A stretch of 64,000 nucleotides of DNA from the sequence record OM386661.1. One strand, written 5' to 3'. Positions 35,723 to 49,625 of this stretch are shown here, in pieces. Positions within the stretch are counted from its first letter, which is position 1. Every line of letters begins with the position of its first letter. The DNA is from Escherichia phage vB_EcoM_ESCO45. The notes under the pieces were generated by a model, which was not told where the DNA came from, did not search any database, and saw only the letters and a program-made list of their open reading frames with translations. Both the position numbers and the translations under genes were made by a program.

Positions 35723-37867
35723 ATGAACAAAGTACAGATTATTAAAAAGAATGGCTCACTCGAAGAACCTGATATCAAAAAAGTTTTAACAGCAGTCACA
35801 AAGTCAGCTAACAGAGTTGGTTATAAAGAGCTTCCACCAGATGTTACCCAAGCTCTTGAGTCAGCATTTATGAGGGTTCTGGTAAAATCCACTAAGCAGA
35901 ATAATTTACTCATTTCAGTAAATGATATTCACAGTATTGTTGAGGGTGCTTTGGCAGAAGTCAACCACGAGATTTATGAGTCTTACTCAACATATAGAAA
36001 TTACCGTAAAGAAGTTGCTCAAAATTGGGATGAACTTTACCAGAAGACCAAAGATACACTCTTCTTAGGTGACAGAGAGAATGCTAACTTTGACAGCAGT
36101 TTAATTTCTACAAAAGGCTCAATTATTCGTGGTTATCTGACTAAAGAAATCTTTAAACAGTACCATTTAACACCAGAGGAACTTGAAGCCATTGAAAAAG
36201 GGTTTATCTATATCCATGATTTAAGAGACCTAATTTTTGGTGGTATCAACTGTTGTCTGTTTGACATTGGTAAAGTCCTGAAAGGTGGCTTTGAAATGTC
36301 TGGCATTGAATATTGTGAACCGAAGTCTGTACTGTCAGCCTTACAGGTTATTGGTGACGTAGTTCTTTCAGCAACTGCACAGCAATTTGGTGGTTTTACT
36401 TTAGCAGAGATTGATAAGGTACTTGTGCCGTATGCTAAGAAGTCTCTACGCTATCATGCTGAGAAAGCAGCATCTTATGGTATTCCTAAAGAACATTACC
36501 ACAATTATGTCATGGAACAGCTACAGATTGAACTGACTCAAGGTTTCCAGTCACTTGAAATGAAACTAAATACTGTACCTTGTAGTCGTGGGGATTTTGC
36601 ATTCACAACTTTGACATTCGGGTTACTTGACTCAGATATGTCTAATGAAGATAACCGACTGCAATACATGATTGCGAGCACTCTCCTAGATGTTCGTATG
36701 AATGGACAAGGTAAGAGCAAGAAGCCTGTTGTATTTCCTAAACTGGTTTATATTTATGACCAGAAGAGACACGATGAGAATATCTGTCAAGGACACCTGT
36801 ACAGTAAAGCCATTGAGTGTTGCTCTAAAGCAATGTATCCAGATTTCTTAAGTGTATCTGGTCATGGTGCTGTAGCAGAGGCTTTTGAGCGTTCTGGTAA
36901 GGTTATTTCACCGATGGGTTGCAGAGCCTTCTTATCTCCATATTTTAACGAGAATGGGGAAGAGTTCTACGTTGGTCGTGCTAACATTGGTGCTGTCTCT
37001 TTGAACTTACCAATGATTTATCAGTACACCAAAGAGAATGGTTTAGATTTCTGGAAAGAGCTTGATAAGTACCTAGAGATGATTCGCAGCTTCCACAAGA
37101 AACGTTACGAAATGATTGCTAATATGCCAGCAAGTTCTAACCCTCTTGCATTTACACAAGGTGGTCTGTATAAAGGTACTAAGAAGCCTACTGACAAGGT
37201 TGGTTGGGATATCGTGAAATCTTTCACAGCCTCTTTTGGGGTTACTGCGCTTGATGAGCTATCTGTTCTTGCTGAGGGTAAACGACTCCATGAAGTTGGA
37301 AGCTGTAGTTTTGCATATGATGTTCTGGCATACATTAACATGAAAACTGAAGAGTTTAAGAACGAAGATGGCTTCTTGTATGCGGTATATGGCACTCCAG
37401 CAGAATCACTTTGTGGAACTCAGTTAAAACAGTTCAGAGATATGTTTGGCGTTATTAAAGGTGTCTCTGACAAGGAATACTTTACAAACAGTTTCCATAT
37501 GAATGTTGCAGCAGATATTACACCATTTGAGAAGCAGGACTTAGAAGAACCCTTCTTCCATATCTGTAGAGGCGGCAGAATCCAGTATGTAAGGGTAGCT
37601 AATCCAGAAAACTTATCAGCACTTAAAAGTTGTATTACAAGGGGGATGTTGAAAGGTTTCTATCAGGGACTTAACTTTGACTTAGCAATCTGTGAACATT
37701 GTGGTAACAGACCAAAGGCTGATGTTGAAGAATGTGAGGTTTGTCATTCACACGATATCTCTGTGATTAACAGGGTGTGCGGGTACTTGTCATTCACAAA
37801 AATTAAAGGTCAGTCTCGAATGAATGACGCTAAGATGGCAGAAATTAAGGATAGGGTTTCTATGTAA
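35723..37867 (+). CDS. nrdD: anaerobic ribonucleoside-triphosphate reductase (class III)
   Basis: 714 aa; N-terminal ATP-cone, C-terminal Zn site CEHCGN...CEVCHS and glycyl-radical motif RVCGYLS. Confidence 0.9.
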   Translation: MNKVQIIKKNGSLEEPDIKKVLTAVTKSANRVGYKELPPDVTQALESAFMRVLVKSTKQNNLLISVNDIHSIVEGALAEVNHEIYESYSTYRNYRKEVAQNWDELYQKTKDTLFLGDRENANFDSSLISTKGSIIRGYLTKEIFKQYHLTPEELEAIEKGFIYIHDLRDLIFGGINCCLFDIGKVLKGGFEMSGIEYCEPKSVLSALQVIGDVVLSATAQQFGGFTLAEIDKVLVPYAKKSLRYHAEKAASYGIPKEHYHNYVMEQLQIELTQGFQSLEMKLNTVPCSRGDFAFTTLTFGLLDSDMSNEDNRLQYMIASTLLDVRMNGQGKSKKPVVFPKLVYIYDQKRHDENICQGHLYSKAIECCSKAMYPDFLSVSGHGAVAEAFERSGKVISPMGCRAFLSPYFNENGEEFYVGRANIGAVSLNLPMIYQYTKENGLDFWKELDKYLEMIRSFHKKRYEMIANMPASSNPLAFTQGGLYKGTKKPTDKVGWDIVKSFTASFGVTALDELSVLAEGKRLHEVGSCSFAYDVLAYINMKTEEFKNEDGFLYAVYGTPAESLCGTQLKQFRDMFGVIKGVSDKEYFTNSFHMNVAADITPFEKQDLEEPFFHICRGGRIQYVRVANPENLSALKSCITRGMLKGFYQGLNFDLAICEHCGNRPKADVEECEVCHSHDISVINRVCGYLSFTKIKGQSRMNDAKMAEIKDRVSM

Positions 37868-38800: not shown

Positions 38801-39121
38801 ATGGGCAAAGTTTATAACACTCGCAAATTACAGATTTTCGTACTGTGTCAGTTTATGGCTAAAGAATACAATTTCTACTATTGTGGCACAGGTTTTATTA
38901 GCGATGATGATGGCTCATACCTCCCATTCAAAGAAGCTGTAAAGCTCTTTAATGAAGAGGAAAGCTCTAAGAAAGATATTGAAAAGGTTAAGCTAACCTA
39001 TAGCAAGAAAGATAAGAAGATTATCTGCCTAGATAACTTTGTAAAAGTTACTGGAGAAGCAAAAGAGTTTATGGATGAGAGTGAGATTTCATTCACAAGC
39101 ATCTTGAAAGTGGCTCAGTAA
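38801..39121 (+). CDS. hypothetical protein
   Basis: 106 aa ORF. Confidence 0.3.
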   Translation: MGKVYNTRKLQIFVLCQFMAKEYNFYYCGTGFISDDDGSYLPFKEAVKLFNEEESSKKDIEKVKLTYSKKDKKIICLDNFVKVTGEAKEFMDESEISFTSILKVAQ

Positions 39122-39165
39122 ACAGATAGTGGTGTTAAGAAATCTGCCGTTGGTGGTGTACACCT

Positions 39166-39333
39166 ATGTGGGATGGTGATAAGCTGAAAGCTGTAGATGG
39201 CTATGGACTCCAGAGTTTTGCAGATGTACTTGACCACCCAGCTTGTGCTTTACGTTTAGTCTTTAGTGACTCTGAGCAGTTTGGTTACACAACTCTTGGC
39301 GATATTCGAAACAATATTGACAAGCAGCTTTAA
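39166..39333 (+). CDS. possible small protein (55 aa)
   Basis: Short ORF ending 14 nt before terminator 39347-39370; weak RBS; below ORF-track cutoff. Confidence 0.25.
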   Translation: MWDGDKLKAVDGYGLQSFADVLDHPACALRLVFSDSEQFGYTTLGDIRNNIDKQL

Positions 39334-46208: not shown

Positions 46209-47021
46209 ATGTCAAGTAGCATCAATGTAGCACTGAACGGTAAAGTTGTTAAAATGCACACTAAGATTATCAGTGTTGAGGATTTCCTTAACGAGAGACG
46301 CTACAAAGAAAATCCTCGTCAGCGAAATACACTGAAACGTCTGAAGAGTAAGCACCTCAATGGTGCTGTATCACCAGACCAAACAGTAGTCCATGTAGCT
46401 AAGTTTGGCAGTTCACTGTTTATTATTGATGGACACTCACGCCGAGAGGCATGGAAGGTAGGCAACCTGACACGACCAGAGAACCTGATTGCAGTTATAT
46501 ACCATGTGAACTCTATATTGGATGTCACAGACTTGTATACCCATTTTGACTCTGAATTAGCAAGAGAGAAGCCTTCTGAAGTTTATTACGGGAATATGAA
46601 GATGATTTCTTTCAATCCAGAATCAGAACTGATGAAAGCATCTTGGGCTACTGCCATTAAGTATGTTGCTGCATACTATGGTGTGCAACAGGTATCTAAC
46701 ACCGAAACAGTTAAATACCTTAATGATTTTAAGAATGAGTTGGAACAAATTGATTCTCTTGAAGTACAGCTTAAAGGTGTAGTAAACGCAAAACGCAAAT
46801 ACTCTTCTGGTATCCGTGCAGCAATGCTAATAACATTACGCCTATATGGTGATGCTGCATTCTCCTTTTGGGAGGATTATAACGATTACTGTGAAGGTAT
46901 GTCTAACAAATATGTTACAGAGTTATACCAACTAGCATTACAAGCTGGTCGCGGAGCACAGGCTGATAAGCTGTTGATGAATCAAGCAATTTCACTTGTC
47001 AACTATTACAGTCAAGAGTAA
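46209..47021 (+). CDS. ParB-like nuclease domain protein
   Basis: 270 aa; FIIDGHSRREAW resembles ParB/DUF262 DGxxR catalytic loop; directly downstream of Dam gene. Confidence 0.4.
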   Translation: MSSSINVALNGKVVKMHTKIISVEDFLNERRYKENPRQRNTLKRLKSKHLNGAVSPDQTVVHVAKFGSSLFIIDGHSRREAWKVGNLTRPENLIAVIYHVNSILDVTDLYTHFDSELAREKPSEVYYGNMKMISFNPESELMKASWATAIKYVAAYYGVQQVSNTETVKYLNDFKNELEQIDSLEVQLKGVVNAKRKYSSGIRAAMLITLRLYGDAAFSFWEDYNDYCEGMSNKYVTELYQLALQAGRGAQADKLLMNQAISLVNYYSQE

Positions 47022-48387: not shown

Positions 48388-48588
48388 ATGGCTGACTTCT
48401 GCAAAGACTGTTCTATCGAAATGTTTGGACGTGATACAGGTGACTTAAAAGGTCTTATCACTGAAGATGACTTTAAAGCTGGTTATGCAATGCCAGTAAT
48501 CTGTGAAGGCTGTGGGTGCATCTGGGTAGACCACGAAGGGCAACGTGTAAAGCCTTCAGAAGATAAAGAATCTTGGGAGAGGTGTTAA
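48388..48588 (+). CDS. small zinc-ribbon protein
   Basis: 66 aa; CKDC ... CEGCGC pairs. Confidence 0.35.
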   Translation: MADFCKDCSIEMFGRDTGDLKGLITEDDFKAGYAMPVICEGCGCIWVDHEGQRVKPSEDKESWERC

Positions 48589-49374
48589 ATGGGTATTGTA
48601 AAAATCATCAATGGTGATATCTTTGACGCCTTTGATAAAGGTAAGTTTGACATCATTGGTCACGGTTGCAACTGTATGAATTTAATGGGTGCAGGTATCG
48701 CTGACAAGATTTCTAAACTTTACCCAAAAGCATATGAGACCGATACAGAAGTTTACATCTATGCAGGTGGTACAGGTCACAAACCCTGTGAAAATTTACT
48801 GGGTAATTTCTCTGTAGCACGTTTAAAACAAGGTCGTATAGCTAACCTTTACACTCAGCTTAAGACTGGTAAAGACGCCCGATACAGTGCTTTAGAGTCA
48901 TCTTTGAAGCAACTTAACAGATACTGTGAAGTTAACCAGTTGAAGAAAGTTGGTTTACCTATGATTGGTGCAGGTATCGGTGGACTTGACCCTCAAGCTG
49001 TCACAGTTATCATCAATCAGGTTATGAAGAGCGTAGATGTTTATCTGTATGTCTACGAGACAGAGATGTGCAACAAGTTACACTCAGGTTGGAAAAACTA
49101 CTGTGAACCAGAATACTTTGCAGGTGTAGTTGTGTCCACAGATAATGCAGTTACCCTCTTCAGACGAAGAAAAGGTAAGATACATCAAAGTAACCCTCCG
49201 GTTGAAAAGATGTCTCTAAGTAACGCTCTAGTTACCCACCTGTCGAAGAGCAATCACAGAATTGCTGTGACATTTGGTAGTGATGCCGATGCTTACATTT
49301 ATGCAAGAACTGATGAGGATATCAAGACGGTTTTCTCTTCACCAGAAGTTACCTTCTTAGACGCAAAGAGCTAA
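48589..49374 (+). CDS. macro-domain-like (ADP-ribose binding/processing) protein
   Basis: 261 aa; N-terminal INGDIFDA...DIIGHGCNCMNLMGAGIADKI resembles macro-domain Gly-rich ADP-ribose binding loop; C-terminal ~100 aa extension of unknown function. Confidence 0.45.
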   Translation: MGIVKIINGDIFDAFDKGKFDIIGHGCNCMNLMGAGIADKISKLYPKAYETDTEVYIYAGGTGHKPCENLLGNFSVARLKQGRIANLYTQLKTGKDARYSALESSLKQLNRYCEVNQLKKVGLPMIGAGIGGLDPQAVTVIINQVMKSVDVYLYVYETEMCNKLHSGWKNYCEPEYFAGVVVSTDNAVTLFRRRKGKIHQSNPPVEKMSLSNALVTHLSKSNHRIAVTFGSDADAYIYARTDEDIKTVFSSPEVTFLDAKS

Positions 49375-49443
49375 GAAACTCTGTAGAATATTCACAATAG
49401 ACTAAGCCTTTCTTATCTGGTAAATTTTTCAGGTAAGGGGGCT

Positions 49444-49625
49444 TTTTCATTTCAGAATTGTGCAGGCATATTTCTATAGAGAAACCTGTAGAGAAAATCT
49501 TGAACTCCAAAGAGAAAATTCATTTTCAAACTGTGCAGGTAATCTCCAAAGAGCTTTTTCATTTTCAAAACGTGCAGAGAAAAATCAGGTCGGGCAAGAA
49601 AAATCATTTTAGAATTGTGCAGGTA
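49444..49625. repeat. iteron-like direct repeat array (4 copies of ~20-bp unit TTCATTTTCARAAYTGTGCAGG)
   Basis: Copies at ~49446, 49519, 49558, 49604; copies 2 and 3 are parts of a 39-bp tandem duplication beginning CTCCAAAGAG (49505-49543 / 49544-49582). Confidence 0.6.

Follow-up and report, generated by a model that had tools for sequence, protein, structure and literature searches.

The macro gene and the two domains of its product

A stretch of 64,000 nucleotides from the genome of Escherichia phage vB_EcoM_ESCO45 (record OM386661.1; hereafter the window) carries an open reading frame (ORF) for a protein of 261 amino acids (aa), whose first 150 or so residues had been proposed, from the letters of the DNA, to resemble a macro domain and to undo host defences based on ADP-ribosylation. 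The ORF is complete, and the strand opposite to it has stop codons throughout. Both motifs quoted in that original prediction are present as claimed, GDIFDA at residues 9-14 and the Gly-rich segment DIIGHGCNCMNLMGAGIA at residues 21-38. The DNA of the region is 91-96% identical to that of more than 170 Felix-O1-like phages (Ounavirinae, Felixounavirus), with Escherichia phage vB_EcoM_ESCO56 as the nearest relative, and in 260 phage records 80% or more of the length of the macro gene is conserved. In GenBank the gene is labelled 'phosphatase', 'O-acetyl-ADP-ribose deacetylase' (as in ESCO56), 'macro domain protein' or 'hypothetical protein' in these relatives. The gene and the two domains of its product are placed as follows:

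48589..49374, + strand: complete ORF of the 261-aa two-domain macro protein, from the ATG start through the stop codon
48589..49059, + strand: macro domain, residues 1-157, predicted by Pfam, PDB profile search and AlphaFold2 with Foldseek to be of the ALC1/TARG1/DarG/Poa1p-like class, Gln type
49060..49371, + strand: C-terminal orphan domain, residues 158-261, modelled as one helix, about six β-strands and a helix

The profile and structure searches that had been put forward as a check of the macro assignment recovered a macro fold. Residues 25-141 of the protein align with positions 2-117 of the 118 in Pfam profile PF01661 at 32.8 bits, above the 22-bit cut-off (E = 7e-8), and PHROG 335, labelled 'phosphatase', is matched at E = 7e-111. 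In the PDB, a profile of the family reached TARG1 (4e-17), the DarG of Mycobacterium tuberculosis (5e-16), SCO6735 of Streptomyces coelicolor (3e-15) and Poa1p of Saccharomyces cerevisiae (4e-15), with matches to the structures of these four proteins spanning 1e-13 to 4e-17. The AlphaFold2 model of the whole protein, in which two domains are seen, has a predicted local distance difference test score (pLDDT) of 90.9 and a predicted template modelling (TM) score of 0.89, and Foldseek matched it with a probability of 1.0 to TARG1, DarG and Poa1p, with target-normalised TM scores of 0.81-0.85, 0.79-0.81 and 0.75, respectively. The Gly-rich loops, MGAGIA at residues 33-38 and IGAGIGG at residues 126-132, are both conserved, and the ratio of nonsynonymous to synonymous substitution rates (dN/dS) of the macro part within the genus, 0.04-0.06, indicates purifying selection. 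Cumulatively, profile matches and structural model place the macro assignment well beyond chance, and the predicted fold is a genuine three-layer α/β/α macro fold.

The C-terminal extension, to which the original prediction had assigned no function, proved to be a real folded domain in the model, with block pLDDT values of 82-94 in the full-length model; a separate model of the domain averages 80. No Pfam match to it was found even at E up to 10, and profile HMMER searches of 1.84 billion representative proteins returned as true homologues only the same macro fusions from Ounavirinae-like phages. A Foldseek search of BFVD with this domain recovered only the orthologue of SUSP2, and no fold match was found in the PDB. 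Several candidate relatives were rejected. An apparently stand-alone domain of 114 aa is a truncated gene call that starts at the last macro strand (VDVYLYVY), and matches to retrotransposon, adhesin and β-propeller proteins are repeat-inflated and spurious. Identity with the DarT-binding domain of DarG is excluded, as the DarG model matches the macro part only, and an inhibitor of RES-domain defence proteins (aRES) of the aRad1 type, considered because of a flexible Gly-Trp loop in the C-terminal domain, was likewise dismissed (hhalign probability 0.1%; best E = 1.1 in the window for the aRad1 hidden Markov model).

The C-terminal domain evolves faster than the macro domain. Their identities are 50% vs. 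81% to one relative and 16% vs. 43% to a more distant one, and dN/dS within the genus is 0.11-0.36 in the C-terminal part, which is still purifying selection. Such a pattern agrees with a role as interaction surface or as accessory module under weaker constraint, and we infer that the domain mediates interaction with a partner or substrate. Relative to the ESCO56 orthologue, in which the C-terminal domain is encoded at L001:8472-8783, six of the seven amino acid differences fall in this domain (C161, S183, K246, T247, V248 and S261) and only T62 in the macro domain, too few changes to distinguish relaxed selection from diversifying selection.

Active site and relatives of the macro domain

The residues expected to form the active site lie in three short segments:

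48661..48672, + strand: codons of H25-G-C-N28, with His25 and Asn28 invariant in 31/31 aligned family members
48844..48858, + strand: codons of N86-L-Y-T-Q90, with Gln90 at the position of the catalytic Lys
48958..48984, + strand: codons of P124-M-I-G-A-G-I-G-G132, the second Gly-rich (diphosphate-binding) loop

Gln90 is likewise found in all 31 family members, and the loop P-x-IGAG-x-GG is invariant in the 31 homologues. His25 aligns with H24 of Adpp from Vibrio phage Gary and presumably with H23 of Poa1p; the H-x-C-N-C motif is presumably common to Poa1p as well, in which His23 was tested by mutation. The equivalents of Asn28 are N22 in DarG, N23 in AdfM (gp104 of phage phiKZ) and N27 in SCO6735. 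Gln90 stands opposite the catalytic Lys of TARG1 (K84), DarG (K80) and AdfM (K78), which is not present in the macro protein, and opposite Gln85 of SCO6735; Gly131 occupies the position of the catalytic Asp125 of TARG1. Both alignments to TARG1 were made with HMMER, from the single sequence as well as from the profile, and the correspondence of TARG1 Lys84 to DarG Lys80 and AdfM Lys78 is established (PMC13309987; PMC9411070). As judged from these residues, the protein is a Gln-type member of the Poa1p/SCO6735-like branch of the ALC1/TARG1 class.

Adpp of phage Gary (KNV71_gp137) converts ADP-ribose-1''-phosphate (ADPR-1''-phosphate) to ADP-ribose (ADPR), an activity that lets the phage pathway NARP1 overcome aRES defence and is lost, together with Adpp function, in the H24A mutant; Adpp thereby counters the phosphorolysis of nicotinamide adenine dinucleotide (NAD+) by aRES, in what is termed the NARP1-AP pathway (bioRxiv 10.64898/2026.01.28.702374). 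Like Adpp, the ESCO45 protein is a phage-encoded, Poa1p-like macro protein, and the two have an identical signature of His (H24 in Adpp, H25 in ESCO45), Asn, Gln and Gly loop. The His/Asn/Gln signature, together with the loop, is found in 9/9 NARP1-linked macro proteins taken from Table S1 of the aRES paper, Gary Adpp included, and also in the Tk.4-type macro protein of T4-like phages. Pairwise identity to the Adpp-type proteins is 27-29% (E = 1e-13 to 8e-18), BLASTP giving 53 bits (1e-13) to Gary Adpp and 65 bits (8e-18) to the NARP1-linked protein of phiAbaA1, compared with 27 bits (8e-5) to AdfM of phiKZ. In a neighbour-joining tree all phage macro proteins with the signature, i.e. the ESCO45 protein, T4-like Tk.4 and every NARP1-linked protein examined, form one clade with 83% bootstrap, from which AdfM and TARG1 are absent, and the two-domain family within it is monophyletic (100%). 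The order of PDB matches cannot separate Adpp-like from DarG-like proteins, as Gary Adpp itself ranks TARG1 first and Poa1p last (phmmer). We interpret the active-site signature and these similarities as pointing to an Adpp-type phosphatase rather than to the DNA de-ADP-ribosylating enzymes.

Poa1p (PDB 6LFQ), an ADP-ribose-1''-phosphate phosphatase, resembles the model in fold (Foldseek E = 5e-9 to 1e-8), whereas its identity is only ~22%, it has no C-terminal domain, and it is a eukaryotic housekeeping enzyme that acts on by-products of tRNA splicing. The closest single-domain relatives are the Tk.4-type proteins (e.g. teqskov_191; 34-35% identity), which have the same motifs (HGCNC, NLYTQ and IGCGIAGGD) and differ from the ESCO45 protein in their length of 159 aa and lack of the C-terminal domain. 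A literature search for T4 Tk.4 and for the macro gene of Felixounaviruses returned nothing relevant, and Tk.4 appears to be uncharacterised in that literature; for a decision on which substrate the clade acts on, Tk.4 is the most important protein to compare.

NARP1 context and candidate functions

NARP1, which consists of Adps and Namat, is present in the genomes of nearly all relatives of ESCO45. In REP7, a typical Felixounavirus, the two genes lie between nrdG and rIIA and are annotated as 'ribose-phosphate pyrophosphokinase' (Adps) and 'nicotinamide phosphoribosyltransferase' (Namat). ESCO45 has lost them through a 3.5-kb deletion that took two small ORFs, Adps and most of Namat, so that in the window the end of an HNH-like ORF runs directly into the final 55 codons of Namat:

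39120..39128, + strand: junction of the ~3.5-kb deletion, a 9-nt microhomology (AAACAGATA) present at both sites in REP7
39166..39333, + strand: remnant of the 3' end of Namat, 55 codons

The junction is found in 1/214 matching Felixounavirus records, namely ESCO56, the other 213 placing its right half in an intact Namat. No further copy of NARP1 is annotated in the complete ESCO56 genome, where a 471-aa candidate proved to be a DUF7788/DUF2828 protein and a gene labelled 'NAD synthetase' (L002:12375-12872; ESCO56 65374-65871) a SegE-like GIY-YIG homing endonuclease (Pfam PF19835, E = 2e-27). The 168-bp ESCO56 gene labelled 'nicotinamide phosphoribosyl transferase' is the Namat remnant, and both labels could mislead surveys of NAD pathways.

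We tentatively propose, at slightly less than even confidence and chiefly from the signature and its relatives, that the macro protein is an Adpp-type hydrolase of ADPR derivatives, which would dephosphorylate ADPR-1''-phosphate, feed NARP1 and so counter RES-type NAD+ phosphorylases. As a catalytically competent 'His-Asn-Gln' macro hydrolase of phages, it would hold an ADPR derivative by means of its two Gly-rich loops and cleave off the group that the distal ribose bears at C1''. ADPR-1''-phosphate, released during NAD+ phosphorolysis by aRES and possibly also through decay of the NARP1 intermediate ADPR-PP, would be the most likely substrate, and the ADPR formed from it would be turned into NAD+ by phage Adps and Namat. 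In infected cells ADPR-PP decays to ADPR-cyclic phosphate, as described with the discovery of NARP1 in Bas63, the BASEL phage JohannRWettstein (10.1101/2024.02.11.579819). Proteins of the ESCO45 type would thus be distally encoded, two-domain Adpps of the NARP1-AP pathway. In the aRES study, only genes at most two positions away from NARP1 were considered; Escherichia and Salmonella phages are missing from its table, and Felixounaviruses from its phage panel (bioRxiv 10.64898/2026.01.28.702374); a macro gene placed as in the Felixounaviruses would therefore be missed by that survey. In ESCO45 itself, where the NARP1 genes are deleted, the enzyme would be unable to bring NAD+ reconstitution to completion, which would leave it as a remainder of the pathway or in a NARP1-independent role, and we predict that ESCO45 is sensitive to NAD+-depleting defences.

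Several observations weigh against an Adpp-type function. In contrast to Adpp, the macro gene is outside the NARP1 operon; in REP7 and in metagenomic relatives it lies downstream on the same strand, at a distance of ~9-10 kb and over 12 genes, well beyond the two genes from NARP1 within which the discoverers of Adpp looked. Metagenomic phages with a two-domain homologue of 33-35% identity retain the gene order Namat, rIIA, rIIB, Dam ... PNKP-like ... macro, and the conserved synteny of NARP1 and the macro gene may simply come from shared ancestry. The ESCO45 protein also adds an orphan domain of ~105 aa, and we know of no Adpp with a C-terminal domain. NARP1 is not at its canonical site in the window, which covers 64 kb only, and both ESCO45 and ESCO56 keep the macro gene intact without it, which weighs little either way because the deletion is rare and recent. 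Within the His/Asn/Gln clade the branching has bootstraps of only 6-40%, and proteins linked to NARP1 are mixed with others, such as Tk.4, that are not. In Escherichia phage teqskov the Tk.4-type gene (L005:2498-2977) lies between vs, the valyl-tRNA-synthetase-modifier gene, and tk, a neighbourhood that holds no NARP1 gene; T4-like phages are not known to carry NARP1. For this reason the clade probably has a function independent of NARP1. Further, a Gln at the 'lysine' position is, by analogy, compatible with DNA de-ADP-ribosylation, because SCO6735, a Gln-type enzyme (PDB 5E3B), does exactly that.

We regard it as unlikely that the protein is a hydrolase of ADPR derivatives that works independently of NARP1 in a function common to it and T4-like Tk.4, with the C-terminal domain as an Ounavirinae-specific targeting device. 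Its targets could be ADPR linked to protein or RNA (e.g. by ADP-ribosyltransferase (ART) toxins such as CmdT), the immune signals gcADPR and His-ADPR, or ADPR-1''-phosphate and Appr>p, in the sense of detoxification. The same macro protein occurs in many large virulent phages, T4-like ones with no NARP1 nearby among them (tblastn found matches in 2,798 phage records), the gene is intact in NARP1-deleted ESCO45, and its position among small early genes is one typical of genes for host takeover and anti-defence. Nothing positive speaks for any specific alternative substrate, however, and SCO6735, the closest characterised Gln-type enzyme, left 2'-OH-linked ADPR on RNA (PMC11833690); as to phosphate-linked ends, the results and the discussion of that paper disagree. 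In the literature searched, no macro enzyme that degrades Thoeris signals was found.

Doubtful to the same degree is an orphan antitoxin against DNA ADP-ribosylation of the DarT2 type, which, like AdfM, would remove thymidine-linked ADPR from phage single-stranded DNA, with DNA or the toxin as possible ligands of the C-terminal domain. Reversal of thymidine ADP-ribosylation has been called a unifying activity of the ALC1-like class, and SCO6735, with His24, Asn27, Gln85 and Gly128 at its active site and an inactive Q85A mutant, removes the thymidine-linked ADPR made by DarT very efficiently (PMC9411070). All four residues have their equivalents in the ESCO45 protein, the macro parts of DarG profiles match it at E = 5e-13 and 1e-13, phage macro domains that counter DarTG2 exist in the form of AdfM (PMC13309987), and the two-domain layout loosely resembles that of DarG, an enzyme joined to a binding domain. 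On the other hand, AdfM and the macro domain of DarG2, which belong to the same broad ALC1/TARG1-like class, are Lys-type proteins (K78 and K80) without the His and lie outside the His/Asn/Gln clade. The DarG family NCBIfam NF048014 scores 49 bits vs. a cut-off of 250, with only positions 3-152 of 338 matched, the PADLOC DarG model matches only at positions 14-146 of 329, and the DarT-binding C-terminal domain of DarG has no counterpart in ESCO45. SCO6735, whose shown activity is on thymidine-linked ADP-ribosylated DNA and on proteins, differs as a single-domain bacterial protein that is induced by DNA damage, whose mobile loop is extended and whose DNA groove is electropositive; both ESCO45 domains are near neutral in charge (isoelectric points 8.6 and 7.8), which speaks against this alternative, though such values are uninformative as a proxy for DNA binding. 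Thus, of the counter-defence role originally predicted, the macro fold stands and the theme of counter-defence is probable, while reversal of DarT-type modification is not the best fit, given Gln90 in place of Lys, the 27 bits to AdfM and the lack of a DarT-binding domain. If it were nonetheless true, the protein would be the first Gln-type anti-DarT macro domain of a phage.

Rather improbable in our estimation, and drawn mainly from analogy, is a bipartite anti-defence protein with the logic of DarG, in which the macro domain would undo the chemistry of an NAD+-consuming defence (ADPR-1''-phosphate or an ADP-ribosyl adduct) while the C-terminal domain would engage a partner. That partner could be a host effector, aRES-like or an ART toxin, or else phage Adps or Namat, for channelling of ADPR; Ounavirinae such as Bas63 would then run a hidden, unlinked 'NARP1-AP' with a stoichiometric component in addition. 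Very unlikely, finally, is an O-acetyl-ADP-ribose deacetylase or 'RNase III inhibitor' of the MacroD/YmdB type, or a non-catalytic binder or sponge of ADPR. Close relatives and distant phage macro proteins are annotated with these two names, and macro domains can be pure readers of ADPR. Structures of the MacroD/YmdB type, however, are matched at noise level by the family profile (5cms, E = 0.43), and the deacetylase label probably derives from OARD1, a name of TARG1. MacroD proteins are marked by the motifs Nx6GG[VLI]D and G[VIA][YF]G, neither of which is in the sequence, which reads N28-CMNLMG-AGIA and IGAGIGG. Catalysis is favoured over binding alone because His25, Asn28 and Gln90 are strictly invariant and dN/dS is ~0.05.

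The gene family has already been annotated as 'phosphatase' or 'macro domain' and the mechanism of Adpp published; new here are the two-domain architecture, the position unlinked to NARP1 and the natural deletion of NARP1 in ESCO45. If the macro protein is an Adpp, Felixounaviruses already own the extended NARP1-AP pathway, Bas63 among them, which we take to be a Felixounavirus, and the estimated share of phages that resist NAD+ phosphorolysis of the aRES type would be larger. ESCO45 and ESCO56, which lost NARP1, and their NARP1-positive siblings make up a clean natural experiment. The His/Asn/Gln macro protein is found in thousands of phage genomes; identification of its substrate would give a proper annotation to a large gene family now mislabelled as 'phosphatase', 'RNase III inhibitor' or 'O-acetyl-ADP-ribose deacetylase', and the C-terminal domain, a small fold without relatives, may mark a new interaction module.

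Surroundings of the macro gene

The macro gene is the final gene in a rightward block of small genes, which is a block of early/middle genes, and its ten neighbours all match PHROGs of unknown function and so give no functional clue. It is preceded immediately by a small ORF:

48388..48588, + strand: upstream Cys-rich ORF of 66 aa (phrog_2210, function unknown)

The TAA stop codon of this ORF ends at 48588 and adjoins the ATG of the macro gene, immediately 5' of which lies a Shine-Dalgarno-like stretch, GGGAGAGG. Because the upstream stop codon abuts the macro ATG, the two genes are probably translationally coupled. On its 3' side the macro gene is followed by a non-coding gap of 800 bp, in which a weak terminator-like hairpin (49408-49441) is followed by four direct repeats of ~25-34 nt at 49441-49622 of the window, with the core TCATTTT(C)AAAnTGTGCAG and a spacing of 39-73 nt; these repeats could be regulatory sites or promoters.

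Two further differences from relatives were noted in the window. An ORF of 270 aa at 46209-47021 (+ strand; phrog_2615, function unknown) stands between a Dam-like methyltransferase gene and an i-spanin gene; since ESCO56 has only ~154 bp in its place, this ORF is an accessory gene insertion or loss. The gene for the anaerobic ribonucleotide reductase NrdD, at 35723-37867 (+ strand), is a single uninterrupted ORF of 714 aa in the window and is annotated as two coding sequences (~1200 and 855 bp), ~400 bp apart, in ESCO56 and REP7, which suggests an intron or insertion in the latter two phages or its loss in ESCO45.

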